A stretch of DNA of 61,645 nt, counting the filler, from Globobulimina sp. (Eukaryota), in the NCBI GenBank assembly GCA_003354225.1. It is 18 parts of 18 records of this genome, joined end to end, with 100 filler letters (N's around TTAATTAATTAA, not from the genome) between each part and the next. Parts side by side here need not be neighbours in the genome. Positions count along the whole stretch, not along the records: positions 1 to 3,332 come from PIVH01003054.1; 17 more parts are not named here. The stretch is one strand, 5' to 3'. Of this stretch, positions 1 to 56,972 are shown piece after piece (position 1 is the stretch's first letter; the number at the start of each line of letters is the position of its first letter). The notes beneath the pieces were generated by a model. It saw only the letters and a program-made list of their open reading frames with translations, was not told the origin of the DNA and did no database searches. The translations under genes and the position numbers were made by a program.

Positions 1-135
1 ATTATCCCTTGACAGGTCCACCATTTATTCAATATATTAGCAGTATAATATATATATTAGTACTAATATGCGTATCTCTTATCGGGAACACTACTGTATT
101 GAATTTGTTTGATTTATCAATATTCTTTATTTTGT

Positions 136-331
136 AAATATTATTAAGAATTTGTGCACATTATAAAACAAAGCAGCGCGCTGCGCGCGCTGCGCCGCAG
201 GGCGGCGCTGCTTTGTGATGGGGGGCTATATTTGATGTAAACTGATATTATTCCATCTGTTTTAATACCAAATACCTCATAAAATGATCTCTTTTCAGTT
301 TTATAATGTGCATAAATTCTTAATAATATTT
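136..331. repeat. Foldback element: 34-bp inverted arms with a GC-rich T-shaped core
   Basis: 136-169 and 298-331 are reverse complements with 1 mismatch. Core 168-216 is ACAAAGCA...TGCTTTGT enclosing two GC hairpins. Confidence 0.85.
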
Positions 332-740
332 TAATGCGAAATTGCGTACTAATTATCCTTGCACTTTGTCTAGAAACGTTTAAAAAGTCATTATTAAGAA
401 AAACAAGATGAGTCTATATATAATTTAATTAAATTAAAAAGAAAAAAAGAGAGAAAAAGCCATAATTCCATAATGAATCCATAAATATAAAAATAAAAAA
501 TAAAAATGAGAAATAATTACAGACATAAAAGGTTCAAATCGAGCAAAAAAGTCATCACAACACAGTCACACAAAAAACGAATATGAATTTACATAATACA
601 AAAAAAAATAGTAAAAATGAGAAAAAAATAATGATAGAAATGTGAAAAAATGCAAGACACCGATAGCCGTTCACAGATACAAAAAGTACCATTATTTTTT
701 TTGTAAATAATTTAAAAAAATTGAAATTCGCATATTTGAT

Positions 741-3332
741 CTAATTTTTATTTTTGACACCGCTATAACTTCCATCCTGTTCTGCCCATTGCCGACATGC
801 ACGTAATATCATCGCCGATATACTGTCATCGTCCAACTTTGCCTTCTCCATAAATTTCACGCGTTGCTGCAAAGTGCAACGTTCGCGCATCTTATCACTG
901 TTATTAATAATCCATGTAATCGAATCATATGCTTTTGGATCTTCCACATATTTCAATGAATGAGAAAATACCGATTCATCGAGTTTGCGATCAAACGTAT
1001 ATCCAATGCCCAAATCTAATAATAATAAATATTGCGGTGTTTCAAAATGCTTTCAAATGACAGCATTTTTATGGTTTGAAACTGCCAAAATGCGGCAGTT
1101 CAAAAGGCATTTAATGTCAAAATGGATTCAGTTTCTTTGTATTATAATATTTTAGTTTGAAACTGAAACTATAATCTCAGTTTCAAACTAAATATTTGCT
1201 TATAACACAAAGCGACGCCGCTTGCGGCGTGGCGAGCGCGCCGCTTTGTGGTATGATCATAGATTTTGTTTGCGCTGAGATTATAGATTCAGTTTCAAAC
1301 TAAAATATTATAATACAAAGAAACTGAATCCATTTTGACATTAAATACCTTTTGAACTGCCGCATTTTGGCAGTTTCAAACCATAAAAATGCTGTCATTT
1401 GAAAGCATTTTGAAACACTGCAATATTTATTATTATTTAATACTGCTACAAACCAATATCAATAACATTCGGGCGCCCAGTAAGATTTGCAATCTTTTCT
1501 TTCTCCACTTCCACATTCTTATTCTCCCTCATCAATTTCAACGTCTCCAATTCCACCGTTTGTCTCAATGTATCCACAGTGGCCGCCAAATTGCCATCCA
1601 TTTTGTTTCCTTTGTCATTTTTTTTTTGTAATTGGTTAATTTTCTTCGATGCCGCATTCATCGTAATGCGTGTAAAATCATCCGGCTGCGCTTTTGATGA
1701 TGATAATAATGTATTGATATTATTTTGCAATTTATTAAACAACACGTTTAAATGGTGGGTCTTATCCTCCTGGTGCCCACAGCCAGCTGCCAATTTCTTA
1801 AACACGCGTTCGGACATCATTTTGTTAATGGGATCATATGCAATGATATCCAATTTGTCGCGTAACACATTAAATATTTGCGCAATCCTTTGATGTACGG
1901 CTGCGCTGCGGAGTCCATCCGGAATAAACGATACTCTATATTCATGCGCCTGCTCAAATACTAACGACGCAGCGACCAACCAATGTATCAAAAACTGCAT
2001 TATCTCAGTGGGAATGCGGTAGGACACGATTTTCTCCTTCCCACCCTGCGCTTTCAACAAAGCCATTCTCTTTGCGTACCATTTTTCTAAGACGCGTTGC
2101 ATGCTATGCGGTTGCCTGACAATACGCACCAAATCTTCGATTCTGTCCCCGCCAGCGCCGCCTCCCAAAACTATCTCTTTCTCTTCATCGAACTCGCTCT
2201 CTGCTGCCTCATTAGGATCAAATACAAATGCTGCTTCGCGATGGGCGTCATATCGATGTTGCGCACGTGGACGAGATGGCTTGGATGAACCTGTATAGGA
2301 TAGTATATTATAGGATAGTATTAGTATAGGATTGTATAGGATAGGATTGGAGACATTATTACATTTTTTAGATTCATACGGCGCCAAAACGAGATGGGAT
2401 TTGGATGGATTTTAAATGGGATTATTCATTTTTATGAGATAGAAATCAGTTTCAAACTGGGCAAAGATTCTAGTTTCAAACTATGATAAAGACATAGTTT
2501 GAAACTGAAACAATAAAATCAGTTTAAACTAGAATCTTTGCCCAGTTTTAAACTGATTTCTATACCATAAAAATGAATAATTCCATTTAAAATCCATCCA
2601 AATCCCATCTCGTTTTGGCGCCGTATGAATCTAAAAAATGTAATAATGTCTTTATGTTTGGCGGTTTCAAACCTGGATTGCGAGTACGCGGCGCCCGAGA
2701 AACACCGCTAATAATTGATAAATTGCATAATTTCTCCACTTCTTCAATGCTTTTCCATCCATCAAAGGTTTGCTTCTTTAATATGTTCCATTTTATTTTC
2801 TTCTTCTTCAAATACGCGGTCACCACACCTTTCGCCGGATTCGTCATCTTTTCTCTCGAATAAATCATACGCGTATAAAAATTATCGTGTCGCACCTGCT
2901 TTTTGTACGCCAATAATATGTTAAATCGCTCGTCGTCGACATCGAGTTTAATTTCCTCGAAATCGGGCACCTTCGCCAGTTGATTTTTTGTGGCAATGCG
3001 CCGATACCCATACAACGCAAAATCTTGCTTAATACCGCGGGTTGGATCGATCTCCATTTCCCGTATTCTTCCGCCATGTCGGTCGCCGTGTTTTAAAGGC
3101 GGGATATTCCTGTTGTTGCTATTGGCGATATGCGAATTGTCGTCGCTCCAATTAAATCCATAAAATCGTTTCTTTTTTTTTCTTCGTTTTCTTTGCGGCA
3201 AACTGGGCCATGGCACAGTAATATCATTTAATACATCATCGTCGTCACTAAAATTCATATGATCCGCGGAAATGGATGGTTTCGGCGCAGGTTTCGGTGC
3301 TGTTGCTTTTGGGGATGGACTGGTTTGCTGCG
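741..3332 (-). CDS. Hypothetical protein, 5'-truncated, 3 exons (3332-2673, 2290-1454, 1015-741)
   Basis: Three ORF-track pieces join in frame through GT-AG introns 2672-2291 (CCAG/GTTTGA...TACAG/GT) and 1453-1016 (ATTG/GTTTGT...TTAG/AT), both phase 1. The frame is open to the contig end. Confidence 0.75.
1018..1437. repeat. Intronic long inverted repeat (about 163-bp arms) with GC-rich double-hairpin core
   Basis: 1018-1180 versus 1275-1437 are reverse complements with about 3 mismatches. Core at 1206-1250. Confidence 0.95.
2351..2651. repeat. Intronic long inverted repeat (about 130-bp arms)
   Basis: 2351-2481 versus 2521-2651 are reverse complements with a few mismatches. Nested AGTTTCAAACTATG/CATAGTTTGAAACT hairpin at the centre. 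Confidence 0.95.
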
Positions 3333-3726: not shown

Positions 3727-5005
3727 ATGGCAAACATCTCAGACCAGCCGCAAATTGAGCCAATGTGGGTGATTGCGATGCTATTTTGTGGCGCTGTTGG
3801 TGTCGCCATACATTTATTAATTATTTTCAAAATGATTCCTCACTTGAGGTCGAATCCCGCAGTCAAAGGAAAAGGCATTGTATGGATAAGCGGTTGTATG
3901 ATAATTTTTGTATTAAATGGCTTAGCGTGTGCAATTTGGCTACTATTCCGGACCAATTTAGTAATAAATTTAACAATAGCTTCCTGTCAATTTATTTATG
4001 TTTCCAACTTCGTCTGTTATTTTGTAGCCAAATATGTTTTGCACTGCTTACTAATCGGTCGAATATATTTAACCTTCGTCAACACGCCGTATCGAATGCA
4101 TTTAATGACGTTTGCACTCTTCGTTTCTGTTCTATCGCTTCATTTTTTGGTATCAACATCAATTTGGGTCTATGAAGTCACTCCGCATATTTTGAAAGGT
4201 ATTTTTCCCATAAATATAAGCTACAAAAACTAAATACTTATCCTTGTCACCAGGCACCTGGATGCAATATGAAATTTGTACATTATTCAGTAATGAAGTA
4301 CGGCAAACTTCTCTCGTCAAAGCCTGCGCGATCTCGATTGGTGTGGAAGATTTTGTGGTTGGCTCTATGACAATGTATATCTTATTAAAGCGGTTGAGAG
4401 TGATTGTTGGCGGCACGCATGATTATGATTTGTCGTTGAAATCCATTCGTTATGGGATTGTGGGTGGCACTGCAATGATATCGACATTATTTCTTTTTAC
4501 TTTGGCCATACCATTCTGGCCAAATGTTACCTTTATTATAGCCATTGATGCAGTGGTTAATAGTTTATGCATATTTTGCGTATTAACCATTGGCCATCGC
4601 ACCTATTATTATTTATGCTTTCCCTTTCGGATTCTGTTCGAATCTGAGTATATTAAACAGAACGATACGCAAATCTCAAACTCCAATATTGTTATGATTA
4701 TACATAAACAGTTAACTCCGATTCCACCTGAAAAAAAGCACGAATCTACATTTGGACTCAACAATGCGACTGTTGCCACCGCAGTGGATACGAATATTAG
4801 TAAAGAGAATTTTGCTGCGGTCGCATCATTGTTATTTGCCACTGCACCAAAAACGGCAAAAACAAATAAATTGGCATTGAGAAAGAGTATGAGTGCAATG
4901 AAAAAGAGAGTCAATAAATATTCGCCTGTGCAAGACATGAACGCACCATCTAGCAATTTAAAATTAAGTGTTTCAAGTTCTGCACCTGTACCAAAGCGTA
5001 TATAA
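3727..5005 (+). CDS. Multi-pass (about 7TM) GPCR-like membrane protein, intron 4199-4253
   Basis: ORFs 3727-4233 and 4244-5005 join in phase 1 across a 55-nt GT-AG intron. About 7 hydrophobic segments, with IDAVVNSLCI in the last helix. Confidence 0.75.
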
Positions 5006-5209: not shown

Positions 5210-6294
5210 ATGGTGGATGTGATAGCAGTGTTTATTCACTTAATAACAGATATAATGGCAATATCGGTCCTATTGTTCATCATATATAACTGCAAAAAAA
5301 AATCAACTGATCCAAATGCGGCTTTCCACAAATCGATCATTCAATGTACAAACGCAACAATTACATTCTTCTCATTAAACCTTATAATCGCAGTGATAGC
5401 ATCCTTATTCGTGGTAATACACACTTACAAAGGAGAGACAGACCGAACACCGCCATTGCGTATCATAGCTGGCTTTCTTTGGTGTGTTGGACAAAGTATG
5501 TTGTACTGTATATTATTTTTGTTTATATTTGCAATATAATCAAGTAAACATTTTCAAATAATCCCAACTGTACATGTACAGTTTCGATGTTGATGGTATT
5601 TACAATGAGAGTGGAATTTGCCTTTAAAGGCACCATTTATTGTTATTCTAGCAAAACATTAAAAATATTAAAATATTGCATGGTTTACATTATTGTATCC
5701 TGCGTTTTTCTCAATATTGTTGTATTCGTTGTTGTTTTAGGAAAAGTAGAAAGTCTGATGAATGTTGCTTTTATTTTCGTTATGTTTTGGGGTTTCTCCG
5801 TGTTGCTGTTTTCAATAACATTGATGTTTCTGTTTTTGCGAAAATTGAACCAGGTTCAAAACGACATCCGTGTCATCGAAAGAGAAGATTCTAAATCGAC
5901 ATCATTTTCAAGTATGACTCGAGAAAACAGAAAGTTTGTGAAGGAATTGAATAAAGTTTCATTAAAATATACAATATTGTCAAGCACATCCATTGTTACA
6001 TCGTTTATAGCAATCGTACTATTTCTAATGTTGGGAGTTACGGGATTTACTCGATATATATTACTGTTTCCATCGATTGATAGTTTTATTAACATCATTT
6101 GTATGTATTTGACATTCAGTCATCATTACATTTATAATAAATTATGTATTCATTGTGAACAGTGTTGTTATTTTATATGTGCACGTTTTCAATGCTGTGT
6201 CATGACAGATGAGAATGAACAACAATTAGGGGAAACTATACAAAATGAGCAGGTAATTCAGGTTGAATTAGCAGAGGAAACACAAAATGTATAA
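5210..6294 (+). CDS. Multi-pass (about 7TM) GPCR-like membrane protein, intron 5508-5581
   Basis: In-frame joining across a 74-nt GT-AG intron. IDSFINIICMYL and Y..LC..C motifs are shared with neighbouring paralogues. Confidence 0.75.
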
Positions 6295-9442: not shown

Positions 9443-10196
9443 TCACCATCCGCCGCCAACATCGCCCACCGGTCCACCACCCATCGCCGCATTACCTCCT
9501 CCCGCCTTCGCCTCTTGTTCCAACTCCCACGCCGACTTCCATTTATTTGCGGTTGTATGAGTCGCCACATTCCCGCCACCTCCGCCCATCTCGACATTCG
9601 CATCCTGATTCATAGAAGGCGGTAAGGGCCGGTTATTCTGTCTGCGTTTATACCACACTGCGCCCAACACCCAATACACAATAAACACAATAACGATCAC
9701 CAATAACAATATAAACACAACTATACAAACAACAAAATGTGTACAGCGCACAGTGCAAGGATGTAATTAAAAACATACGTGAATTGCAAGCGACCCACGT
9801 GTCATAACAGTCGGGATTGCCTCCAAACGCATCGCTAAGTTTCTCCCCAAAGCTGCGTGACTGCGTAGGCGAATGCGTCGGCCGTGCCGTAGTGGGTTGC
9901 GGCGTCGGTCCGGGCAAAGGATCCATGGTAGGATCGGTCGTGGGAGACCTCGAAGGATGGTCAGTCGGTGCCCGCGTAGGCGATGCTGACGGCACCGGCG
10001 ATTTCGTAGGATTTAATACCGGTGATTTTGTCGGCGGAGAGGAGGGCATTTGGGTCGGCGCTGCAGTGGGTCTATGTGTATTAAGTGTGTATCTCACTGC
10101 ATATTGAATGGTATCGTATGCCTCTGTTGCAATACCGCCACCAGTCACTAATACAATGGTCCCTGCATCATCCAAATAGCCGTCATTCACAAATTC
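9443..10196 (-). CDS. Single-pass membrane protein with Pro/Thr repeats, 5'-truncated, intron 9778-9721
   Basis: PT-repeat stalk joins the TM-helix exon in phase 1 through a 58-nt GT-AG intron. Confidence 0.7.
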
Positions 10197-10562: not shown

Positions 10563-10768
10563 TCAGTTATGGCTGGTCCAATCTGTACCGTAGTCTAAGG
10601 AAATGCTGAGTTTGCTCATTTGAAATCAGTTATGGCTACCATAGTCGAAAGAAATGTTGAGTTTGCTCATTTGAAATCAGTTATGGCTGGTCCAATATGT
10701 ACCGCAATCTAAGGAAATGTTGAGTTTTGCTCATTTCAAATCAGTTATGGGTGGTCCAATCTGTACCG
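10563..10768. repeat. Tandem repeat, about 63-bp unit, about 3.5 copies
   Basis: TCAGTTATGG... units start at 10563, 10626 (internally deleted), 10677 and 10741. Confidence 0.9.
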
Positions 10769-10838
10769 GTTTATTATTTATGTCTTGTCAAAACATATAT
10801 TTTTGGATAGCTTTTTTTTGGATTTTCAATTGAGGTCA

Positions 10839-10962
10839 TTCAAACTAAAATAAAATAAAAAATAAAAAAAGTGTGCCAATGGTAAATATGCATAAAATGT
10901 GCATGTTCAGTACAATGTTTACCATTGGCACACTTTTTTATTTTTTTTTATTTTAGTTTGAA
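10839..10962. repeat. Inverted repeat, about 50-bp arms (MITE-like)
   Basis: TTCAAACTAAAATAAAA...GTGTGCCAATGGTAAA paired with TTTACCATTGGCACAC...TTTTAGTTTGAA. Confidence 0.85.
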
Positions 10963-11269
10963 GATCATCAATTATAATGTGACAATAGATTATAATTATA
11001 AAGAATTAAAGTTTGATGTTAGGTAGAGAAGTGTGATGTTAGATTAAGAAATACTGACAAATGTCAGAGTCTCTCTAATCTGCAGTAATGGCACATCCAA
11101 TAAAACAACACGTCAACAGGATCCATGATGTCAAATGTTTTGAAGCAAGTTTTTTTTCAAATGAGAGGAAATTATATAAAACAACAAAATATTACACAAC
11201 GAATGCGATACGATAAATATAGACTTAATCGCACACAACATATCATATCAACACTCAATTATGCTGTTA

Positions 11270-17306: not shown

Positions 17307-19583
17307 TTAATACATTTTAATTACCAAAGAAATCTTACCTTTACAAATAGCACATCTATTTGTAGTTTTTCTAAATTCATCAATACAAAACTCACAGAAA
17401 TGATGTCCACATTGTAAAATATGTGTTGTTTCTCTATCACAACACACATTACACTGACGATTATCTTGTTGTGTATTAGTATTCACATTTGCATATTTTC
17501 TTTTTAATCGAACAATTTCATTAAATACAACATCTAAATCTAATTCGTTGCTTATTCCAATTTTATCCAAAATATAACGATCAAAATATTCTAAATATTC
17601 ACCTTTAAATATTTGCAGTTCACTTTGTAATTCTATATCCTTTTCCTCTTCCAATTCAACTGCAACTCCGTCTGTTTCGCATTCATTATTTGATTTATTT
17701 CCATTATGTATCAATGGATACGATCGCGATGATCCTAAATTTAATCCATCTAAAAATTTACGACGTTTATTCGCAACCAACACTGACTGTGACTGTGACT
17801 GAATGCCATCTTTTCTTCTTGACTTTGATGGTGGTGATATAATCAGCGGTGGACTCATTTCATTACATTTAAAAAAAGATCCATTTTCATTTTCATTGCG
17901 ATTGACTATGCCGAATCTCTGCCGATTTAATTGCATATATTTTTCAATCTTATCCATACACTGTTTATCAGTGGGCCAATATCCATAAAATGATTTGACA
18001 TTTTTATATTTTATGCGTTTTAACCATTCAATGAATGATCCAATATCCCAATATTTCCATAACGACTCAAAATCATCCCACATTTTCAATTTATTTCGAT
18101 TATAATTTATTCTCTCTTTCTCTTTATTTCGCACCAATTGTAATTTAATTAACTTATCATATTCAATCGATAATTTATTCAGTAAATTACTTATATTCCC
18201 ATCAATTATTTTATACTCCGTCTCTATGTCCGAGCTCTCATTCACATCCAATATCTCACTCTATTCTCAAACCGTAAAAATGCAAAAAAAAAAACGATTA
18301 CAAAATTGAAACACAAAAAAAATACAAACTTTAGATTCAAACTCTTTTCTGTCATTATGAGAGGCAATTAATATTTTTTTTAATTGTTCTGGATTTGTTG
18401 GCAATGCCTCGAAATTGTTCGATATAATATTTTGCAATAAAGCAGGCGTCCTTTGATACGCAGTGGGTTTATACAATAACTTAACAATATCTTCAGAATT
18501 GGCAAACATAGCAATTTCAATGGCAGTTAACTGCGAATGTTTACATCGTATATTAACATCAGCGTTATATGACAATAATACCTGTACTGCATTATAATGG
18601 TTATGCTGAGTGTGATAAAACAACGCCGTTCCATGATATTTATTGTTATAATTTATATCGACAATATATCCGTTACTAAATAACCATACAAAGGATTGTT
18701 TTTGTGTGACATATCGCAATATATTATCATCTAAAAGTGCACCATTATCAATCATCATTTGTGGCAATTCAAAGTATGCTCTGTCTAATGCTGTGGCAAT
18801 GTAATTGATGTCGGCGCCATGTGTCGCTAAAAACTGTGCCAACGATACAATGTCAAAATAGGTCTCAGACTCCGATGCCACTGCCTTATTATGGATGTTA
18901 TTTATATTATAATGTCGGACTAAATAATAAATACAATCCTTTGGTACTTTACATCCGCAGCTCACTAAATGGTGGATGCAGGGAATTGTATTTAATTCGT
19001 CAATTTTATTATTGTATTGAAATAATAAGTTAATTATACGATGATTTGATTCATGCTTAACGTCACTGCCTTTGTTTAGCAATAATTTGATGCTATCAAA
19101 ATTCGACTGACAGCATGCGAATTGAAGGGGTGTGAAATTTCTGTATTTGTTTGCATTGCAATATGTGAATGGATTGTTGATATGAAAGGATTTAGTTTTT
19201 GATAAGATGTAGTTGAGTGATTCTAAATTATTTGTTCTGAGCAAGTCTTTTAAATACCATGAGCCTGAACATAATATATCGGATTCATTTTTAGCAAAAA
19301 AATCATTGATTTCATTGTTTCGTTTGGAGTGTACTATTTTGCTCCATGTTGGCTGTATTTCCTTGTATTTATAATAGGATTCAATGCGTTGATTGATATC
19401 TGTATGGAAACCAATGGGTAGATTGGTGATCGGATCTTGCTTATTTTGTGACTCAAACAGATGGGCCATGAGGTCATGCGTTGAGTAGTAGTTTTTCTTT
19501 TCAAATTTGAGTTTCCATTCTTCTCCAATCTCCACTGGGCACTGGCATGGCAGTTCCACAAATACTTGGCAAATGCGAGACAT
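17307..19583 (-). CDS. Ankyrin-repeat and C-terminal RING-finger protein (putative E3 ligase), intron 18329-18261
   Basis: Ankyrin motifs TPLQFAC..LLLNKGSDV and GTALFY..VLLSYNADVN. C3HC4 RING CNVC...CGHHFCEFC...CAICK. A phase-0 69-nt intron joins the two ORFs. Confidence 0.85.
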
Positions 19584-35836: not shown

Positions 35837-37593
35837 ATGTCGTTGTTACTGCTTATTGTGTTGTTAACATCTTCAACAAGCGCATTTTATCATGTTTTCC
35901 AAGATTCATCTACAACATTATCGTATATGGCTCAAATATCTACAACAGTAACTGACTCATTTGATTTAGTTATATACCAACAATCACCATATTCCTCATC
36001 ACCAATTTGTGCAGATTGTATCATATTTAATGGTACATTAAAAACATACAAAATCTCATTGTCAAAGGACACCATTTCATTCCATATTAAATCAAATAAT
36101 ATCTATATATTTATACAATGTCCACTATTATTAACAATTTCAATTGCTTTGCCATCCTATCACATTCAATACATTCCAACCACTCCAAACATACCAAATA
36201 ATCAGCAGATCGATGTTAAATTCCGTTGTGTTTTCCAACAACAATCAGACGAATCTTTGAATAGCATTAATTACATAATGTACGATCAAAATTCAATATC
36301 ATTGTTTCAATATCACTTTCCATTGAAATTAAATCAATTCATACAGCATATACCCACACCACACAACAGATCCACAACCAATCCATACCTCACCTATAAC
36401 GACAATATATTATATTTTATTTCACTTTCAAACACTTTAAACCTTGCTTCCTACAGTTTTCTCCACCACACATGGCACAGAAACGATGCTATATTCTCGG
36501 AGATAGCATTCAGTGATCCAACACTTTCCATACAATATGCCGGCACCCATCTCACTGAAAACACTGCCAATCCAATACTAAATATATTCTTTCATTCCAA
36601 CAGCAAATATGAAATATTATCTTGGCTCATAGACACAGACATTTATTCCATTCATGAGTATAAATACAACGCATTGGACACCAATCCGATCATAATTAAT
36701 GATTATAGCACCCATATTGTATTATCACCTCTAACTGATCATAATTTCATATACTATGACAGTATGAACACATTTCTCAAACAAACACCATACAGCGCAC
36801 AATATATGCAAATATCGCATACAAAACGACGCAGATTACAGCGAAATGACCCTGAATGCACAGATGCATCGGAAAGTTGCGACTTGGTGTCAGAAGATTG
36901 TGGTGACGAAGTTACCAAAGAGTGGTGCCATTTAACCTGTGATTTGTGTCCACAACGTTTGTTTTGTTACTGTTGCAAATATGCTGTTTCTGGTAACGTT
37001 TTAACATTTACCTTTTAGGAACGTTTAATTGCAGTGATTATAAGTCATCTGCCTCTGCTGTAGATGTTTGTCAATATCCCAGGGAAATGCCATCATTTTG
37101 CGGCGATCCATCTGGATGGTACTTGTTTTTCTGTCCCATCTCATGCCATCATCCAAATTGCTCAGATATATGGATGCCGTCAATGAACCCAACACCGGCG
37201 CCAACAATTATGACCACAGTGTATGAATCGACAGGAGTTACAATGGAAACAATATCACAGACAGTCACTGTCATACCGACGGATATGCCAACAACTGACG
37301 AGAAAACAACTCAATTTCAAACGGATAGAGGACCTGTGATTGATAAGGATGGTAAGGAGGATAATGATATGACGTTGATATTGCTGTTGCTCGCTGTGTT
37401 GTTGATATGTGTGTTTATGGCTGGCATATTGCTATGGATGTGCATCAACATAGTGAGACTACAGAGGGACAGGAATGCAGTGGCTGCACTGTCAAGTAGA
37501 ACGCCTGACTTTTTTACACATCCACCATCTACGCCGGATTATTTTAGGACTATGTTTCATCGGCACACACATGCGGATCCAGTGAGAGGGTAA
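35837..37593 (+). CDS. Secreted/type I membrane protein with ShKT-like Cys modules, intron 36957-37018
   Basis: Signal peptide, RRRLQ, two six-Cys modules (CTD...CHLTCDLC and CSD...CPISC..C), TM LILLLLAVLLICVFMAGILLW. Phase-1 splice. Confidence 0.7.
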
Positions 37594-39932: not shown

Positions 39933-40873
39933 ATGGAAGACTTGACAGAAAAACCAATACTGAGAGAAGAAGAAAGTCTGACAAAGCACGCAATGCAGAT
40001 CAATAAGATGGTATATAGTGGTAATAACCTATTATATGCAGACAATGATGAGCCTGTACATAACTTATCTGATTTAGAGGATCCAATATATTTTTCATTT
40101 TTCCATGGTTATGATCGAGAAACTACAGAGGGAACAATTGGAATTATTAAACACTGGGCAGGAGAAGCCGAAAATTTTGATATATATCAAATATGCGCAT
40201 TTGACGCAAAAAACTGCAGAGTAAATTACAAATATTCTGTTTTAAGAGCAATCATTTGTTTACTTATGCAATTGCCATCCATTATATTTATTGTATACCA
40301 AATGATAACAGAAACAGAGAAGGAATGGTGTAACATTGATGGTGTTGATGCGGAACATGGCATTATGAAATTCTTTGCCTTTGGGTTTAGTGCGTATTTA
40401 TCTGTATTTATTACTAAAAGTATGGCAGAGACTGGTTATAAGGGAATGTATTCAGTGATGGTAGCATCATTGCATAATTTGCCACCTTTTTTAGATGGAA
40501 ATTGGTTACGAATTGGTGCTTATTATACAATTGTCTAGTTTTACAATTTGCTATTTACGGATCATTTGTTGTATTATTTTTTGCCGAAAATGGTATCGAT
40601 TTGGTGCTCAATTCTATTGCGTTATTTTTTGTGACAGAATTAGATGATTATTTGGTGAGTAGTTTTGATTATATTCGAATTGAAGATTTTTTGGCACCTT
40701 TTGAATTTGAGGAAAATAGGAATCCATTGTTTCAAATTGAATGGGAAAATAAACAAATAAAATGCGAAAATGCATGGTTTTGTTTGGAATGTATTTTAAA
40801 TATTTTCGAGGCCTTATAATTAATAAAAGTGTCATCTGTTATTGCTCCCATATACATTGGAATTTGTTCATGA
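39933..40873 (+). pseudogene. Disrupted membrane-protein gene (frameshift near 40525, in-frame TAA at 40817)
   Basis: ORF1 ...IGAYY continues as NCLVLQFAIYGSF...DLVLNSIALFFVTELDD in another frame. After the TAA the frame continues LIKVSSVIAPIYIGICS*. Confidence 0.6.
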
Positions 40874-42035: not shown

Positions 42036-42164
42036 TTTTTTGGCTTAGTTTCGTTTCATTTCATTTCAACGAATACTGGTTGAAAACCACTCTGCTAACC
42101 CAAAAACATTGCCAATCGTTGAAATGAAACGAAACGAAACGAAACGAAACTAAGCCAGAAAAAA
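42036..42164. repeat. MITE-like foldback with (GAAAC)n-expanded arms
   Basis: TGGCTTAGTTTCGTTTCATTTCATTTCAACGA paired with TCGTTGAAATGAAACGAAACG...AAACTAAGCCA. The loop contains GCTAACCCAAAAACATTGCCAATC. Confidence 0.8.
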
Positions 42165-44600: not shown

Positions 44601-47600
44601 AACAATATCAATTCAATCATAACCGAGATTGATACATTTGTAACAAATTACGGCAACAATGAAATTATTGTTTTATATTTTAACAGTTTTCAAGTAAATA
44701 GTTTACAAAACTTTTACAATGCATTTTCAAATTCAAATTTAAACACAAAAATGGTACCAAATACCATCGATTTAAAAACAGAAACGTTACAAAATATGAT
44801 TGCCAGCGGCTATAATATTATTGCATTTAGCGATGATTTACTAAATGCGCCAAATACATTTTTTGATTCGCAGCAATATTTATATATTGCAGATACGACA
44901 TCGAATACCAATACAAATATAACCCGTGGCTATATTTCAGATATCAATGAGCTTCGAACATTTATAACTTCGAACTTAAGATACGGCTCGCCTTCAAATC
45001 ATTTAAATTTAATATATTGGACATTAGATATTGCGCCAATCGGTGCCTTCACCCAAGTTACTGATTATAACTCATTTTACGAATATAATATGGCTGCGGC
45101 ATTTGAGCTACACAAAATAATAAAAACCTATTCCAAACTGCGATTTGGTAATGTAATATTGGTAGATTTTATGCAGGCTTCAGATGTGGTGCAGCAAGCA
45201 ATTATTTTAAATCTGGAATATTTTTCCTGTTTTGATAGGCTCGCAATGAATAATAATATCAGTGGTTGTCCTTCGCAAACCGCATTACATATTAATTTTA
45301 AATATAACACTCTCTCATCTGTGTGTACTACGAATAATAATTTAAATGCAGATTGTAGACGTTCCTGTGGTTCGTGTCCTTTTTCAACAAATGTTCCTGG
45401 CGCAAACTGTAGCAGTTCAAGTGAATGTAATTCCGTATTATATGCCTCATACGGTAGTGGTACAGGAACATGTTTCATTACAGACAGTGAATCTCGATAT
45501 ATTGAAGAACCGTCATTTTGTTTAAGTTTAAGTGGTGGATATGTATCGTGTGATAATTTTGATGGCTATGATATTTGTCAAAATAACGACAATGATTATT
45601 CTAATAACTGCGACGGTTTTTGCAGCGCAAATTATGAATGTATGGAGGGATATTGTAACAGTAAATATTCAATTTGCATGTCATTAGATGATAATACTAC
45701 CATTGCATCAGATACAACCACCACAGAAACGGTGATGGATGAGGAATATTCAGGCATTGTATCAGAACGAGCAGCTTTATATCGTGATGAAGTGAGTGTG
45801 TTCCGTCCAGGTAATGCAGATGCGTTATATCCAACGGGTGAAAACGCTTTGCAGTGCTCTGAATATTCGACACAATGCTTTTTTGATAATTTAGATGCGA
45901 ATCCATATGTTTCTTCAGTTTTAGGTCTATTATTGGTAGTTATTATTTTATGCATTTTATTTTGCGTTTGTTTTTCAATTTGTTGTCCGTTTTGGTGTTT
46001 TTGTGATAAATGTTGTAAACGGTGTTGTTGTACACCGATTTATGGGAAAACAGCGAAAGAAGAATGGCCATTGGTTAAAGAATGGTGTCCTTGTATATCA
46101 TTATTGGTTATTATGATTATTGTGTTAGCCTTTACCATTGAAGGTATTGTCAATAATACAGCATTACATTCACATATATTTGATAACGATGACGAGAATT
46201 CGTTTATGCATGTTTCGAATCAATTATTTGATGATGTTGAAAGCAAATTTGGTTCGGCAAATAATTTGACTGATTTTATTCTTCAAAACATTGAAAACAT
46301 ATTAAATTCAGTTGATAATATTATTGCGGATGGGAATGATATTAAAAATATTAAAGATAACATCAATGAAATGCATCAGGAATTGAATGTAATGTATAAC
46401 AATTATTCAGACGGTATTTCATTATCCGGTGAAGTGAGCAGTCCCTTTAATGCCAGTATTGTACAGAATTTTACTTTAATATGTTCCTATTGTGATACTG
46501 TTCCATCACGAATATTATCTGTAAATGACACGCTTTCCTCCTCATCATCATCAACATTGAATGACCTGTCAACCACATTGAACTCAACCGCAATATTTGT
46601 CGATTATCGTGATACCATCAACGATGCAACGGAGCAATTTCGCGATTCAATTGCGGAGATATTAGATATTAGCAATTCAACTCAAATCCGATATAATGAG
46701 TATATGGATTTAGCAGAACAATATGATACAGAGAGACAAACGTATGTCACCTTATTTTTCTGTTTAATGTTTTTATTTATAATATTTCCATTGGTTGGTA
46801 TATTGATGAAATCCAAATGGTGTTTCAAGATAAATTGGTGTTTAGCTATGATTTGTGTCATATTATTGTTGCTTATTTCGCTGCCATTCGTATTTATTAT
46901 CACCTTATCCGCCGATTTCTGCGTAAGATTGGATGAGTTTGAAGCGGCGTTGCCATATGCAATGGATACAAAATTAGGTGTTGCAGTATTTAATACTTCT
47001 GCAGCGGTGTTAGATGATACTTCTACATATGATATAAATGACACATTACAACTTATTGATACTTGTTTTGATGGCGGTTCATTATTACGTTTGTTTAATT
47101 TATCAGAAGTCCTCGATTGGAGCTCGTATAAACAACAACTTTATGATGCATTAGATTTTGATGTCCAGCAATTTCTGACCATTGATGAGTTGCAATCGTT
47201 TGAAACCGAAATTAATACATTATCTGTGAGTGAATATTCAAGCAACGTGGACTCAACCATCGCAGCGGTAAATTCAATCCCCGGCTGTCATTGCATTGAG
47301 GCGAATAATATATTTACGCGCGACAATTTAAACCCAGGCACACAATGCACTCCATTTGCTCCTTACACTGGCAATGCATCTCAAGCACGCAATTATTGGT
47401 TGAATATTAATGCGACTCTAAGAAGAAAATGTGTAAAGGCATTTGAAAATGCATCATATGCTGTACAGATATGGAATTCGTCGGCGTTGCAAGCACAAAT
47501 AAAGATTGATACTTTAAAAAGAGAGGCGTCGAAATTATTTGATATATATGATATTATTTATGGCCAAGTGAGTGGACTAATGTTTAAATTACAAAATATT

Positions 47601-47929
47601 ACATGTTTAATCAATCCATTGTTTGATGATTTTGATAAAATATTGAATGAGTTTACAAATTGTGGCTTTTTAGGGGAAAGGTATGGAGATTTTAAAAACG
47701 TGTCATGTGTGGTAATATTTACAGATTTTTATAAAATTGGACGAGCCATTGTCATTATTGCATTTATGTGTTTATTAATTGTTTTATTTAGTTTATGTTT
47801 AGATTATGTTTATGCGCCTTGGAAAGCAAAATATATTGTTGATCATGATGGTGATGGCATTGATGATGAACAAGAACCATATATTGTACCGGATGTGGAC
47901 GATGGTAATGACGATCCATGCGGAGATTT
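44601..47929 (+). CDS. Large membrane protein: PI-PLC X-domain-like C-terminus, Cys-rich region and prominin-like 5TM module; truncated at both ends
   Basis: One open frame across the contig. IDTFVTNYGNNEIIVLYF and GNVILVDF...VVQQAIILN (PLCXD-like); CRRSCGSC; TM followed by CFCDKCCKRCCC, two long helical loops, ADFCV and a final TM (prominin/tweety-like). Confidence 0.65.
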
Positions 47930-48837
47930 NNNNNNNNNNNNNNNNNNNNNNNNNNNNNNNNNNNNNNNNNNNNTTAATTAATTAANNNNNNNNNNNNNNN
48001 NNNNNNNNNNNNNNNNNNNNNNNNNNNNNCTTCGTGTGTGCGAGGATAATGTATACAGTTTCAAACGTGGTGAACCAATTGGGCCTCCATAGATGTGCAT
48101 ATTCATAACTATTTTTTTATTTTTGTTTTAAAGGCCTCAATTAGAATGTTTAGAAAAATTGCATAATTCACAAAGGAGACGAAACTGTCAATCGAAAAAT
48201 GTTGCTAATAACTATAATTTAAGGCTGGTTTATCTAATTGTAAATGTACAATATTAAAATCAGAAACAATACGAAATTCTCCAAAAGATGACAAAAACAA
48301 ACAAAAAAATTAAAATATAATTATAAACTATTCAACTAAAAATTGCTAAACCTTTTTTTTTATTATTTTTAATATCTGGAGCACAAACACAAAAGAAAAA
48401 ATTAATATTTATTAATATAATAATAGCTAGAATATAATTGTTCAAAAAATGGGGAAATACAGCAACATTATAAATTGATACAATAATCAAAAACAAAACA
48501 AAACAAAACAGAAAAATCAAAAAGCAAAAAGCAAAAAAATAACAAATTTAAACACACATAAAAAAAATCTACACAGATTTGCTTTTTTATTTAGATGTCA
48601 ACGATATTTAATTCCATATTTTAGGAAACTAAAAAAAACAAAAAGTAAAAATGTAACTAATACATAATATACAAAAGCATTCACAAAAAAAAAAAGAAAT
48701 AAGGAGCGCGAAACAAAAAAACAACACCAAGTTCAAACATGTCCTTTTTTTTCAACTTCATCTGCAAAACAAAAAAAAATGGCTAATAAGTTATTATAAA
48801 AAAACTATTATATTATATTTACATTTAAACGAGTTGG

Positions 48838-51358
48838 TTACCCCATTTTGCCCAATTCCTGACCATATTCCTGGCGAAACACTTGTTTCTCCACATTCGG
48901 CTTCACAAAATTACCGGCACCTCCCTGCCCACCCGGCGGTGCATTGGGCCCCACGGCGCCCGCCGCCGCATTGGGATTAAAGCCCGTCGCCAACGGATTG
49001 AACCCGACCTGATTGCCACTGATCCCCGCTCCAAACCCGTCCTCTTGCTCCATCACCGCCGCATCCAAGTCGTCCTGCACTCCGCTCAACGCCGCGCCCA
49101 CTTTCTTGTTCTTCCACCAATACCGATACAACAGAAAGGCCAACATGCCCAAAAACACCACCAGCGCCGCAATCAACCACCATAACCACGACGGGATCTC
49201 CGTCTCCTGCGACGGCGCCACAGTCAGCGCATCGTCGTAATTGTACCACACCGGGATGCGCATCGGAAACATGCGCCCGTCCTCACAATCCGCGTCGCAG
49301 CGACTCGTCGCGTTCACGATCAGCAAATTGCCCAACAACGTCAAGCTCTGAAACGACTCGCAGCCGTTGGTGCAATCCGAGCGCGACACTGTAAACTCAA
49401 TGGTGGTGTTCAACAAATCCGCCGCGGTCCACACCACCAAATGCCCGCTCAACACATCAATCTCCAGCCCCGCCGCCTCCACCGTGGCCGCCTCGCTCCC
49501 ATCGCATTCCTCGCTATTCCCGCCGCTGCAGATAATATCATCGAACTCCAAGCTCCAAAAAATGTCCATCACACACGGATAGCCCTCGGGGATGATGCCC
49601 ACGGCGAAGTTGTGCGTCTGCGTCGTCAATAAGTAGCCATTACTGATCCCGGCCTTGTCTTCCCCCTCACTGCGGTCCTGCGGCTCCGCCAACTCCACAT
49701 CCAACCTACAGTCGAACGTATCCTTATGCTGCCTCTCCGCGTCGTACACCACGTTAAAGTCAGGGAACAGTAAACAGCATTGCTGCCCCGCCATGTAACA
49801 CGAGCACCGCGGACACTGTCCGTCCGTTATGGTGTCGTCGTCGTAGCACCGCTGGTTGTTGTCGTAGTTGCAGATCTCTTCGCTGGTGCCGCCGATCCAG
49901 TAATAATTGGGACAGCCCCACGTCGGCGCGCGGGTCGGCTCGCTCGTGGGCGCCGGGGTGGGCGCGTCGGACGGCGAGAAGGTGGGCGCCAAGGTGGGCG
50001 CGCTGGTCGTGATCAAGCAGTCGGTCTTGGTCGAATAGTACGTGGTGCAGAACGTCGTGTTGACGCACACCTCGATCTCGGTCTGCACGTAGCCGCCCCA
50101 GACCCAGTCGTCCGGGTTGAAATCCGCGGTGCTGTACGAGAGCTCGCCCGAAGTGAAGGCCTCTTGCGTGGCGTCGCTCGCATCGTAGTTGTAATTCAGG
50201 CGGTAACGGAGATGCCCGTCGTAGCCGCTGTCCGTCCAGGAATAGACGGCGTATTTGCGGTTGAGAGGATGCGAGTTGTTCTTCAACCACTCCACGGTGC
50301 AAAACTCGATGCTGGGCACCTCGGCGCACGTATGGCAGTACGACAGACTGCAAATCGGGTAATAGCCGAGCGTCAGGTTGCAAAGACAGTTCTGGCCGAC
50401 GCACTGCCCGATGCCGCCGCAGCCGCCTTGCGTCACGCACGTCTTGTCGCAGGTGGCAGAGGGCGGCGCGCCCGGAGTGCCGAACTCGTTGCACGACCAG
50501 GCCCAATTGTTGCCATTGTCGTTGTCGTAGCCGCGAGAGATCAGTTCGTACGAGAACTTGTCCGGTAAGACCTGCCAGAAACCTTCCGCACCGTAAACGA
50601 CGGTGTCAATGGGAGTCGGCTGGTCGATATCCGAGATGGTCACCTCCCAATTGCTTCCATCCTGCGTATTTGTACGCAAATTCGCATCTGTTGTGTACAT
50701 GTTAGGTATACGTAGTACATACCATGGCGTTGTTGATGGTGCAGTAAGCGCAGAGATTGACGGCAGTGACGCCATTGGCAGAGGTTAAGCCGCCGGGAAG
50801 AGGACAAGAGGCATCGGCTCCGGGGGCACTGCCACAGCCGATATAGACGGAGTTTTCACAGAAACAATTGTCTGTGGTGGCTGTGTTGGCATTGGCACAG
50901 TTGGTTAAGTCGCAATCGTCGCAGGAATGGCAGGTGGGCGCGGAGGGGAAGGTGGCGTCGCCCGGCAAATCAGATGCATCATAGAAAACGACGTACGAAG
51001 ATTGAGGGATATTAACGTCCGGCACGCCGTTCTCCGCACCATCAAAATTCACGAAACCTTCCAACTTTAAGGTCTGTAGACTGAAATCAATGCCGTCGTT
51101 CCAGATTTCGATATAACGCGTCAACCGCCCATCGCCATCCTGGTCCCAGCCCGCTGGCTTCCGCATCGGTTTAATCTCCGTCAACTTGCAACGCTTGGTG
51201 ATGGGACACAAGACGCCGGACAAGGAATACATGATCGACTCGAAGGCCGCCTGCGTGAAACCATCCACTTCCAACCAATCTGCGACAGGGTCTTCGAGCA
51301 GACAGTCCAGCAAACCCTTTTTGATATTGGTGCCCACCGCGATGATCATGACCCGGAT
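48838..51358 (-). CDS. Type I adhesion-receptor-like protein (vWA end, lamin-tail-like, EGF-like, PT repeat, TM), intron 50722-50662, 5'-truncated
   Basis: IRVMIIAVG...LLDCL, RYIEIWN, CGGIGQCVGQNCLC, TM WLWWLIAALVVFLGMLAFLLY and tail FNPLA. Phase-0 61-nt intron ATG/GTATGT...GCAG/GAT. Confidence 0.65.
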
Positions 51359-54400: not shown

Positions 54401-54787
54401 TGATATTGATTATGATGAAAACTTTCGATTTTATATTTCTACAAAATTGTCCAATCCGCACTATTTGCCGGAGATCAGCATTAAAGTGACTTTGATCAAT
54501 TTTACTGTGACCAAAGGCGGTTTAACTGAACAGTTATTAGGCGATGTGGTTAAAAAAGAGAGGCCGGAAATCGATCAAAAGCGATCGTTATTAATCAAAC
54601 AAATGGCTGCGGATAAACAGGAATTGAAAAATATTGAAAATACCATTTTGAAGTTATTATCGGAGTCGAAAGGCAATATTTTAGATGATGTGGTGTTGAT
54701 TGATACGTTGACAAAATCTAAAAAAACCTCTGCTATTATTAATCAGCGAGTGTTCGAATCTGAAAAAACTGAAAAAATGATTGAAGA
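51459..54787 (+). CDS. Axonemal dynein heavy chain, internal fragment (end of AAA3, AAA4, stalk/MTBD, AAA5)
   Basis: PPGGGR, HYTFNLRDISKVFQG, GNAMLVGVGGSGRQSL, FPSLINCCTIDW, RWPLMIDPQ and NPHYLPE. Confidence 0.98.
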
Positions 54788-54889
54788 NNNNNNNNNNNNN
54801 NNNNNNNNNNNNNNNNNNNNNNNNNNNNNNNTTAATTAATTAANNNNNNNNNNNNNNNNNNNNNNNNNNNNNNNNNNNNNNNNNNNNTG

Positions 54890-55737: not shown

Positions 55738-56972
55738 TTAATTGTCCTTTGGCAAAGACAAATCGATACGTTTCACAATACCAGTAAAAGCACGTCCTAC
55801 ATTAATGATTGTTTTTACACTTCCTTTCTTAGCACTCGAATAAACTGCCTGTCTCACTTTTGGTAAAGGCAAACCCAAAATAACGGCTTCACTTTTCTGC
55901 GTATCCTCAGCTATTACAAAAACAACTTTCTCACTAACCCCATACAAAGCAAAATTTGTCAAATTCTTATTAATTTCTATTTCTGATATAAATGAAAGTT
56001 TATAAGATGGCTTAGGGTTGTCGGTTGGTGGAAAAGTAATCGAAATCAGTTGTAGATATCTATTTCTAATACAATATTTTGTTACAGTTCTTATTACTAA
56101 AATTTCATTTGGTCTAGATACAATAAGATCATTTACTAATACTTGATTTCTGATTAATCGATCTTGGGAATCTAATTCCGTCCAAGCTGATGAATTTTCT
56201 TGAAAATGCATTCGCTCGGTAGTTAGCAAGAATGCATTGGTGGAGCGCAATGGCCTGATGTTAAATGCGCTGACTGGCATTTCCATAAAATTGAATTTTT
56301 CCAAGAAAGCTCCTTCACCTAGAATAAAAACACTCATCATCATCATTATCACGTGCATGTCACATGCTTTTCGTCTTCTTTAGAATACCTGTATCACTGA
56401 ATCCGATGCAAGACGACCATGGGTCGACAGTATTGATAGTGAATGAATCAACAATTTGACGACTGTCTTCGCTAACTATGGCCAACTTCCAAAAATGGCA
56501 ACCTTTTTCTTTGCACATCATGAGCCAACCATAGTCATGACCTCTTATTTGATGTACCCGTTCAACTTGATCACCCAATGACACAGCTGACATGAATCTT
56601 TCACTCATATTTGGGAGAGAAAGGACAACAACCAAAATGCGAGCTTGTGACACAAAAGCGATCATGCTGACTGAAAATGACAGATGTGATGATGATGAAA
56701 AATGATAATAAAAAACCTTTTTTATTAAAACTTGAGAATCCGTTTTCGATGTCATGAGAGCGTGATATTTCCATTTGAGAGAATGACAAGATAGGGGTTT
56801 TGTCTCTTTTCAATAATGCTGTGTTTTGCCAAAATGGCATTCCTTCTGTTGTTGGATATGCTCTTTTATTGATAACCCAAACAAAAACATTGTCAAATTC
56901 CAATTTTGCCATGGACTGGTTTGCAACAGGTATTAATTTGTGATGAGGCATGTTGCCATAAGTGGTAGTCAT
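55738..56972 (-). CDS. Three-exon hypothetical protein (372 aa): exons 56972-56717, 56670-56389, 56318-55738
   Basis: Three ORFs join in frame through phase-1 GT-AG introns 56716-56671 (46 nt) and 56388-56319 (70 nt). Spliced length is 1119 nt. Confidence 0.65.

Follow-up and report, generated by a model that had tools for sequence, protein, structure and literature searches.

Foldback repeats filling two introns of one Globobulimina gene: a putatively inflated old intron and a candidate new one

MITEs and Foldback-type DNA elements, such as FB of Drosophila, sit in introns. The fungal introner-like elements that van der Burgt et al. described in 2012 are reportedly multi-copy and longer than regular introns, with an unusually stable predicted structure, and are said to lack terminal inverted repeats (TIRs) and target-site duplications (TSDs). 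Introners proper are near-identical introns present in many copies per genome, from 5 to over 2000, in hosts that include Micromonas, Aureococcus and dinoflagellates; family median lengths of 30-654 nt are given, and some families have TIRs but no TSDs, in the excerpts of the two sources used here (Gozashti et al. 2022, PMC9860276; review PMC11282704). The words 'Rhizaria' and 'foraminifer' are absent from the main text of PMC9860276. The unconventional introns of Fritillaria borealis and of euglenids bear TIRs and are thought to be MITE-derived; their inverted ends pair and join the intron ends, and their borders are non-canonical, AG-AC, AG-AT and others (excerpt of PMC11282704). In yeast, zipper stems are defined by a window of 42-85 nt (excerpt of Nat Struct Mol Biol 2025, PMC12350175). 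The locus described here adds to this known kind, that of introns derived from or colonised by transposons, and it comes from a lineage that is genomically almost unexplored and in which introns are short and few.

The DNA analysed (the window, 61,645 nt, from Globobulimina sp., GCA_003354225.1) consists of 18 pieces of about 3332 nt each joined by N-linkers, and is thus a sample of the genome and not one locus. For a dynein fragment, the nearest atlas cluster is DNAH12-like and made up mostly of arthropod records, which gives no placement of the organism. The gene lies on the piece at positions 1-3332 (PIVH01003054.1). As an earlier note on this DNA had claimed, the minus strand has two GT..AG intervals, one of 382 nt (2291-2672) and one of 438 nt (1016-1453), whose excision joins three open coding segments in frame:

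2673..3332, minus strand: exon A, an open frame whose 5' part is cut by the end of the piece; conserved N-terminal domain
2291..2672, minus strand: intron 1 (predicted), 382 nt, GT..AG, phase 1, CAG^GTT at both junctions
1454..2290, minus strand: exon B, 279 codons, conserved central domain (phmmer, blastp)
1016..1453, minus strand: intron 2 (predicted), 438 nt, GTTTGT..TTAG, phase 1, splitting an Asp codon as G^AT
744..1015, minus strand: exon C, 90 codons and the split codon, conserved C-terminal domain; stop codon TAG at 741-743

Read from the sequence, retention of intron 1 would lead to a stop after 28 codons and that of intron 2 after 3. The GTTTGT donor of intron 2 is also that of the ORF-joining introns found at 36957 and 18329. 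The earlier figure of 46-86 nt for all other introns was roughly reproduced, convincing ORF-joining introns elsewhere in the window being 47-86 nt long, a range inferred from ORFs that does not systematically exclude long introns. We infer that splicing at both predicted introns is very probable.

Exon A matches residues 89-279 of the homologue P0001 (blastp, E 3e-23) and is also matched in the contigs L004 and L005 (tblastn). Exon B matches P0001 (phmmer, E 6e-51; blastp, E 4e-60), P0002 (blastp, E 7e-35) and P0003 (blastp, E 2e-20), while exon C matches residues 506-581 of P0002 (blastp, E 1e-17), P0003 (E 0.003) and L004 (tblastn, 52.5% identity, E 4e-26). Since exons A and B are colinear along P0001, and exons B and C along P0002, the three segments read as one gene; these colinear matches confirm that, at the level of sequence, exons A, B and C belong together, and we take them for a real, lineage-restricted protein gene.

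The earlier note had proposed comparing the presence of the introns between paralogues or alleles. L004, a homologous metagenome contig that encodes P0001 (99.85% identity, 666 aa), is the sole informative comparator for intron 1, and with it loss in L004 is indistinguishable from gain here; L005 is a degraded partial copy without both intron sites and is thus uninformative. The exon A/B region of L004 is one uninterrupted ORF (652-2649) with no intron at the intron-1 site. Before its exon-C homologue it needs a 56-nt intron (2603-2658), GTTTGT..TTTTAG, of phase 1 and splitting G^AT. This intron has the phase, the split Asp codon and the GTTTGT donor of intron 2 and is placed 4-5 codons apart from it in a variable linker; the sequence similarity between the two is not above that of shuffles (p 0.06-0.3). 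Because the homologue has this 56-nt intron, intron 2 can with good confidence be taken for an ancestral short intron, probably one that was colonised and inflated about 8-fold. A nucleotide-level 'empty site' for intron 1 was looked for in L004 and none was visible. The reverse complement of the 56-nt intron gave a weak match to the core of intron 1 (31, shuffle maximum 28), which is not relied on.

The repeats in and near the two introns are as follows:

2652..2672, minus strand: GTTTGAAACCGCCAAACATAA, the donor segment, which is a family box and would contribute the 5' splice site to intron 1
2351..2651, minus strand: foldback 1, arms 2523-2651 and 2351-2479, loop 2480-2522
2293..2350, minus strand: satellite of about 55 nt, with a period of 15 nt, that forms the 3' tail of intron 1 and is pyrimidine-rich on the transcript
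1018..1437, minus strand: foldback 2, 420 nt, arms 1275-1437 and 1018-1180, with a centre (1181-1274) that extends the stem
1206..1250, no strand assigned: GC-rich mini-hairpin (CACAAAGCG..CGCTTTGTG) that caps foldback 2 and is found also in the 3'-flank element
136..331, no strand assigned: a smaller, third foldback on the 3' side of the gene, some 410 nt beyond the stop, with 34-nt arms and 1 mismatch

Each intron is mostly inverted repeat, as had been noticed before: the arms measure 129 nt in foldback 1 (5 mismatches, 96% identity) and 163 nt in foldback 2 (3 mismatches, 98% identity), and foldback 2 occupies intron 2 apart from 16 nt at its 5' end and 2 nt at its 3' end. The predicted RNA folds reach -210.9 kcal/mol for intron 1 (z = -31.2) and -287.7 kcal/mol for intron 2 (z = -39.9), with 0 of 100 shuffles as stable in either case. 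The centre of foldback 1 is made of five 24-nt units, each opening with the palindromic box AGTTTSAAACT, and the third foldback has between its arms a 128-nt centre that contains the GC-rich hairpin.

Foldbacks 1 and 2 share a 77-nt core (local alignment score 63, shuffle maximum 35), and the motif TAGTTTGAAACTGAAAC..TCAGTTT(C)AAACTA, pointed out earlier as shared, is found in both introns. The same is true of the many short motifs then listed: AGTTTGAAACTG with at most 1 mismatch has 12 matches in the window, 11 of them within the two introns, where 0.63 are expected by chance. The four matches of the GC-rich hairpin in the window (0.27 expected) all fall in foldback 2 and the 3' element, and the two versions align with a score of 44 (shuffle maximum 28). 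That the arms otherwise differ is correct in so far as the outer arms of the two foldbacks align only weakly (39-42), but they are not wholly unrelated (shuffle mean 23-25, sd about 4). Between copies, then, the centre is conserved and the ends differ.

The copies in intron 1, intron 2 and the 3' flank all lie within 2.5 kb, and a search of the other 17 pieces for the box array found none and 1 weak match. A search of sequencing runs listed one that contains the stretch, the DNA run X1, and no RNA run. The read depth of the arms in X1 is about 1-5 times that of the exons, which points to few copies. The segment 2447-2529 is also matched, with 9 differences, by a separate Logan contig of 222 nt, which points to at least one further copy elsewhere. 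Scans with the core gave 3 matches to a 17-mer in viral contigs, about the chance level and without box arrays, and 0 matches in metagenome contigs, in prokaryote genome contigs and in relatives of the host gene in genome contigs. At 10828-10973, in an unrelated intergenic piece, there is also a small foldback whose ATTTTAGTTTGAA end is similar.

Intron 1 is repeat DNA throughout, namely the donor family box, then the 301-nt hairpin, then the satellite tail. The first 16 nt of the donor segment match 1074-1089 and 1366-1381, both within the foldback of intron 2, at 15 of 16 positions. The tail (TRF: period 15, 3.6 copies), which matches a repeat of extreme abundance in runs X1-X3, includes the branch-like sequence TACTAAT at a distance of 30 nt from the AG. 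The CAGGTT described earlier as resembling a TSD is indeed present at both junctions of this 382-nt intron, although it is partly expected from the splice-site consensus. Moreover, this direct repeat sits at the intron borders only and not at those of the inverted repeat, and no TSD was found at the inverted-repeat borders of intron 2 or of the 3' element. As intron 1 is absent from L004 and consists entirely of repeat-family DNA, donor included, it was probably created, and we moderately favour a new, insertion-made intron. The proposal that a palindromic family creates or colonises introns is therefore the better supported of the two made in the earlier note, and the comparison suggests creation as well as colonisation, the former for intron 1 and the latter for intron 2.

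The other proposal, that the foldback collapses long introns to a short effective length, fits intron 1 and does not fit intron 2, as judged from predicted folds. In intron 1 the fold consists of 21 nt, the stem and a 60-nt tail, in which the satellite is unpaired and 29 nt separate the stem from the A of TACTAAT; with the hairpin excluded, the effective length would be about 81 nt and the gap from donor to branch about 50 nt. Intron 2 is predicted to fold as 16 nt, the stem and 2 nt, so that the stem takes in both the branch region and the U-rich tract. As this stem ends just 2 nt short of the AG, these two signals would be engaged in base pairs, and poor splicing is predicted unless the stem is unwound.

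Like introners, intron 1 is missing in the homologue, is built of repeats and has a CAG/CAGGTT repeat at both junctions; one of its splice sites, the donor in the family box, lies in element sequence, and its 382 nt fall within the family medians in the excerpts quoted above. With the one comparator available, the intron position is absent from the homologue for intron 1 and not for intron 2. Unlike introners, the related introns in 61.6 kb are just two, both in one gene, which share a 77-nt core, have arms of weak similarity and show a low read depth, and the inverted repeat covers nearly the whole element and not short termini. In common with MITEs and Foldback elements, the copies are short, AT-rich and non-coding, have long inverted arms (129, 163 and 34 nt as terminal inverted repeats) and internal 24-nt periodic units, and sit in introns, in the 3' flank and possibly in intergenic DNA. 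They differ from those elements in that no consistent TSD, and none of fixed length flanking every copy, was found, that the centre and not the ends is conserved, and that copy number is apparently low, no high-copy set with conserved ends being present within the 61.6-kb sample. These comparisons stop short of establishing the family as classical MITEs or introners. In its predicted fold intron 1 comes within the window for yeast zipper stems as given in the excerpt, and a splicing aid of that type would suit intron 1 and not intron 2, whose branch region is inside the stem; the stem here, of about 130-150 bp, is moreover repeat-derived and known from prediction, and is not a short evolved stem. 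Both introns differ from those of Fritillaria borealis and the euglenids by their canonical GT-AG borders and host-typical GTTTG donors. They resemble the fungal introner-like elements in being long and strongly structured; we know of no sequence or taxonomic relation between those elements and these foldbacks.

We regard the palindromes as real DNA with high confidence. An assembly or whole-genome-amplification fold-back artefact might be suspected from an assembly that looks short-contig and low-depth (about 10x), from a part of exon A that is uncovered and from one odd contig join, but it is highly improbable, since the arms carry 3 and 5 mismatches and the junctions are crossed by contigs that were assembled independently from run X1. 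These Logan contigs, which are of full depth, span arm-loop-arm (2390-2529), arm to exon A (2583-3017), exon C to arm (581-1046) and arm to exon B (1389-1781); those listed do not bridge the satellite (2285-2390), and 3025-3136 is uncovered. In addition the loops are non-palindromic, and unique coding flanks lie on both sides, in frame and colinear with the homologues. The odd join, in one X1 contig, links 3017 to a 53-mer resembling the intron-2 arm (at 1086) and is unexplained. A ciliate-style DNA-eliminated sequence was also considered and rejected, given long ORFs open in the standard code, canonical GT-AG borders and host-typical donors.

The account that we put forward, and on which we are evenly divided, is that of a gene with three members of a foldback family, in which intron 2 is an inflated old intron and intron 1 a new one made by insertion. 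The three belong to a small family of long-hairpin repeats, with one member in each intron and one in the 3' flank of the gene. At intron 2 a foldback would now fill an ancestral short intron, whereas at intron 1 repeat DNA would have inserted into the exon at CAG^GTT and be removed as a new intron, much as introners are. The donor GT would lie within a copy of the family GTTTGAAAC box, and the satellite tail would provide the branch-like TACTAAT, the pyrimidine-rich tract and the AG. The hairpin would reduce intron 1 to an effective 81 nt, within the 47-86 nt of the host, and bury internal cryptic GTTTGA donors; that of intron 2 would give no comparable help. As to mobility, we lean slightly towards a family that is or was mobile. 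It is rather unlikely that both introns are old, with foldbacks landing in them later, an element that created no intron and loss of intron 1 in the lineage of L004: intron 2 demonstrably occupies the site of an old intron, intron 1 without its 301-nt hairpin has a normal size for this genome (81 nt) and its absence is seen in one comparator only, yet these residual 81 nt are not unique, their 5' 21 nt being the family box (15/16 match to the interior of intron 2) and their 3' 55 nt a copy of the very abundant satellite.

Formation of the palindromes in place, by template switching or inverted duplication seeded by GTTTSAAAC boxes with the arms kept alike by conversion within the palindrome, would suit an arm identity of 96-98% within a copy that is barely detectable between copies, the conservation of the centre and not the termini, the lack of a TSD in two of the three copies and their clustering within 2.5 kb with none in the other 17 pieces. 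We nevertheless judge it improbable, because the intron-1 site offers no ancestral sequence to duplicate, the reads point to one more, diverged copy elsewhere, and the small foldback at 10828-10973, with its similar ATTTTAGTTTGAA end, is in an unrelated intergenic piece. The hairpins could also be selected RNA elements (small-RNA substrates or splicing regulators) whose arm complementarity is kept by function and not by recency, and the extremely stable stems and sub-threshold matches to microRNA-precursor models (best 43.3 bits, gathering score 95) agree with this. It is very unlikely all the same: such matches are far under the gathering score and reflect hairpin shape alone, Rfam 15 at gathering score gave 0 matches in the whole window, only two of the eight arm mismatches would be G-U on the sense transcript, which gives no sign of RNA-level compensation, and the third copy lies beyond the coding part.

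A broader form of the insertion account, which we consider doubtful, is that a foraminifer-like (rhizarian) foldback family makes new spliceosomal introns, its palindromic, binding-site-like GTTTGAAAC box doubling as the GTTTG-type donor of the host and its whole-length hairpin folding the insert to the length of about 80 nt that the host prefers and hiding internal cryptic donors. As the arms are 96-98% self-complementary and the copies have yet diverged beyond easy alignment, hairpin-templated copying or continual conversion of the arms would be implied. If true, Foraminifera would have their first introner-like system, and its architecture would be unusual, with a conserved centre, free ends and no TSD. 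If the account put forward above is confirmed, a single gene would display, side by side, the two ways in which repeats act on introns, inflation of an old one and birth of a new one. It would also be a natural test, at a single locus, of whether a short-intron spliceosome can cope with an intron 5- to 9-fold oversized thanks to a long hairpin, to which intron 1 would answer yes and intron 2 would be the counter-case.

With regard to the protein, no Pfam family was found above cut-off for the exons or the homologues, and a word-indexed protein search with exon B, at near and longer lengths, gave no match and no spliced protein. Structure prediction for exon B from a 4-sequence alignment is all helical, with a poor mean pLDDT of 55.8.

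The two intervals that interrupt the gene in the first piece of the window (1-3332) both start with GT and end with AG on the minus strand and are both of phase 1, and their excision unites three open segments, as the earlier note had claimed. Left unspliced, intron 1 leads to a stop after 28 codons and intron 2 to a stop after 3. The giant foldbacks described for both intervals are real and are the only large ones in the whole window, the other non-linker inverted repeats being small. The features are as follows:

2673-3332, minus strand, exon A
2291-2672, minus strand, intron 1
2351-2479/2523-2651, inverted repeat of intron 1, 129-nt arms, 96% complementary, 5/129 mismatches
1454-2290, minus strand, exon B
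1016-1453, minus strand, intron 2
1018-1180/1275-1437, inverted repeat of intron 2, 163-nt arms, 98% complementary, 3/163 mismatches
744-1015, minus strand, exon C
136-331, third foldback, 34-nt arms, about 410 nt 3' of the TAG stop (741-743), with a GC-rich hairpin as in intron 2
10828-10973, small inverted repeat
42039-42149, small inverted repeat

Folded as RNA of the gene strand, the two introns gave -210.9 and -287.7 kcal/mol (z -31.2 and -39.9), and none of 100 shuffles folded as well as either.

An exhaustive phmmer search of 1.84 billion representatives, with exon B as query, returned four relatives. One of these, P0001, is colinear with exon A (residues 89-279, E 3e-23) and exon B (383-636, E 4e-60), while P0002 is colinear with exon B (223-493, E 7e-35) and exon C (506-581, E 1e-17); for P0003 the match to exon B is accompanied by a weak one to exon C (E 0.003). 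Since these proteins span them colinearly, the three exons belong to one conserved, lineage-restricted protein, for which no Pfam family was found. Both exon junctions sit in variable linkers separating conserved blocks. One contig of sequencing run X1 (depth 8.1) omits 129 nt in frame within exon B (1733-1863), with ends that are not GT-AG on the gene strand; it probably represents an allele or close paralogue shorter by 43 codons. What is left at 1369-1919 of metagenome contig L005 is a piece, internally deleted and frameshifted, of a gene more closely related to this one (60-74% protein identity), and the database protein P0004 results from naive ORF calling on that piece.

Fold-back chimeras are expected to have perfect arms. 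Here the arms are mismatched at 3 and 5 positions, the centres are non-palindromic and the flanks are coding, in frame and colinear with homologues, all of which argues against an artefact of assembly or amplification. Moreover, independently built Logan contigs from run X1 (about 10x) span four junctions:

581-1046, exon C into arm
1389-1781, arm into exon B
2390-2529, arm-loop-arm
2583-3017, arm into exon A

The stretch 2285-2390, where a satellite of enormous depth intervenes, is bridged by none of the X1 contigs listed. An artefact is nevertheless considered very improbable. Positions 3025-3136 are uncovered in runs X1-X3, though the window sequence there is coherent coding sequence matching L005 and a second metagenome contig, L004. 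One X1 contig connects exon A at 3017, through a 6-nt overlap, with 53 nt similar to the intron-2 arm around 1086; the join and the uncovered stretch might reflect another, polymorphic insertion, a paralogue or a chimera.

In gene orientation intron 1 consists of 21 nt (GTTTGAAACCGCCAAACATAA), a 301-nt hairpin and a 60-nt unpaired tail. This tail is a satellite with a period of 15 nt; it is rich in pyrimidines on the transcript and carries TACTAAT 30 nt upstream of the AG. The centre of the hairpin holds five 24-nt units, each opened by the palindromic box AGTTTSAAACT. Intron 2 has 16 nt, a 420-nt hairpin tipped by a GC-rich mini-hairpin, and 2 nt. The motif that the two introns had been said to share was borne out: a 77-nt core common to both scores 63 against a shuffle maximum of 35, and 11 of the 12 matches to the box AGTTTGAAACTG (at most one mismatch) in the window fall in them (expected 0.63). 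Their outer arms show a weak but significant likeness (39-42 vs 23-25, sd about 4). Intron 2 and the third foldback align with a score of 44 (shuffle maximum 28) and hold all four window matches to CACAAAGCRGCG (expected 0.27). In addition, the first 16 nt of intron 1, donor GT included, agree at 15/16 with a segment inside the intron-2 foldback. Judged from the sequence, all parts of intron 1 are repeat-derived and its donor is element sequence, since the tail is satellite and the donor segment and core match the intron-2 foldback. The tail repeat (2293-2347, (GTATAGGATAGTATA)n) matches at 90% or more a hugely abundant, variable repeat in all three runs, whose summed contig depth is about 0.5-2.3 million vs about 10 for exons; this repeat is likely to be one of the main satellites in the organism or the sample. 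The GC-rich tip of the third foldback is a (GCGCGCTGC)x4 tandem array (176-211) in AT-rich surroundings.

The palindromic mobile family proposed in the earlier note is favoured by three related copies in three settings (one in a new intron, one in an old intron, one in the 3' flank), by a further diverged copy in the reads (222-nt contig, 9 differences over 2447-2529), by a small foldback, intergenic at 10828-10973, whose ATTTTAGTTTGAA end is similar, and by the presence of DNA at the intron-1 site where the homologue has none. A classical MITE or introner is disfavoured, as no target-site duplication was found at the inverted-repeat borders and no box array in the other 17 pieces, the conserved part is the centre and not the ends, and arm depth is only about 1-5x. 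Formation of the palindromes in place, and not by transposition, is a live rival, for arm identity within a copy (96-98%) far exceeds similarity between copies. This indicates either recent insertions from diverged masters or a palindrome continually regenerated, which might proceed by hairpin-templated synthesis or arm conversion. The foldback at 10828-10973 (about 146 nt, nested 40-nt and 38-nt arms, ends TCAAACTAAAAT..ATTTTAGTTTGA) resembles at its ends part of the intron-2 element (20 nt at 90%) and may be a distant relative of the family; it is adjoined by tandem repeats of about 60 nt with CATTTGAAATCAG (10600-10760).

A metagenome scan with the host-family alignment yielded L004 and L005. 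According to the sole paper citing their WGS prefix, the project comprises unassigned contigs from a metagenome of the benthic foraminifer Globobulimina, with a draft genome of 34.25% GC and N50 1797 nt. This hints at a foraminifer or one of its associates as the type of organism concerned. L004 (3719 nt) encodes P0001 at 99.85% identity in one uninterrupted ORF (652-2649), and therefore needs no intron between exons A and B. The homologue of exon C (52.5% identity, E 4e-26) is in a different frame and is reached by removing a 56-nt phase-1 intron (2603-2658, GTTTGTTG...TTTTAG) that splits G|AT (Asp), the only intron needed in about 740 codons. Window intron 2 likewise is of phase 1, splits G|AT (Asp) and starts with GTTTGT; in global alignment the two lie 4-5 codons apart within an unconserved linker. 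By our own estimate, not a tool output, the same phase within 5 codons would arise by chance in about 0.5% of cases. Most probably, intron 2 is of old date and usually measures about 56 nt, against 438 nt here, since the L004 intron agrees in phase, split Asp codon, donor and near position. Intron 1 is absent from L004, the single informative comparator, L005 being a degraded partial copy with neither intron site. The suggestion of an element family creating or colonising introns thus divides by site: that of intron 2 already has an intron in L004, that of intron 1 has none. No inverted repeats of at least 25 nt were found in L004 or L005. The reverse complement of L004 2603-2658 scores 31 against the intron-1 core (TAAACTGATTT..TTTCAGTTTCAAAC; shuffle maximum 28), which could be a leftover of the same box or a chance match in AT-rich sequence.

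Repeats within introns are commonplace. Transposon-derived introns are well documented, some families having TIRs without TSDs and in some the element bringing one splice site (PMC9860276, PMC11282704). Against this background, the present case stands out by a palindrome that runs nearly the whole length, by conservation of its centre, by low copy number and by the taxon. The main text of the 2022 survey (PMC9860276) contains neither 'Rhizaria' nor 'foraminifer', and our literature search yielded no account of introns of this kind from foraminifera. The case is valuable mainly for setting an old against a new intron inside one gene, and for a testable prediction on hairpins and splicing.

The window is a genome sample and not a single locus, its 18 pieces of about 3332 nt being joined by N44-TTAATTAATTAA-N44 linkers with stops in six frames, so that ORFs ending in linkers (e.g. 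44751-47981 and 51501-54839) are cut by sampling and not biology. It is AT-rich (GC 27-48% per 2 kb) and encodes eukaryotic proteins in long, uninterrupted exons (axonemal dynein heavy chain, kinase, ankyrin repeats, class-C GPCR). Joining ORFs of at least 100 codons in frame via GT..AG intervals of 35-130 nt gave 21 pairs, some certainly spurious. The convincing introns have GTAT.. or GTTTGT donors and Y-rich acceptors:

4199-4253, 55 nt
5496-5581, 86 nt
9721-9778, 58 nt
18261-18329, 69 nt, GTTTGT donor
36957-37018, 62 nt, GTTTGT donor
40448-40494, 47 nt
50662-50722, 61 nt
56319-56388, 70 nt

The range of 46-86 nt given in the earlier note for other introns roughly agrees with the 47-86 nt of the convincing ones, within a scan limited to 35-130 nt. 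The figures also agree with those of the foraminifer Reticulomyxa, for which a table gives 2 introns per gene on average and a mean intron length of 87 nt (PMC13746701). By ORF logic the foldback introns would be 4.5-9 times the usual length, yet their donor class appears host-typical.

That a hairpin collapses a long intron is plausible for intron 1 and not for intron 2. In intron 1 the modelled stem would leave 21 + 29 = 50 nt from donor to branch-like A and an effective intron of 81 nt, which is within the host range; the 50 nt also fall within the 42-85 nt geometry that defines yeast zipper stems (PMC12350175). The stem would in addition hide the internal GTTTGA boxes, possible cryptic donors. 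The intron-2 stem stops 2 nt before the AG, with the branch region and U-rich tract paired in the predicted fold, and because of this pairing it could not help and should hinder splicing unless unwound. Splicing of intron 2 is still expected, since exon C encodes a C-terminal domain that has stayed intact and conserved.
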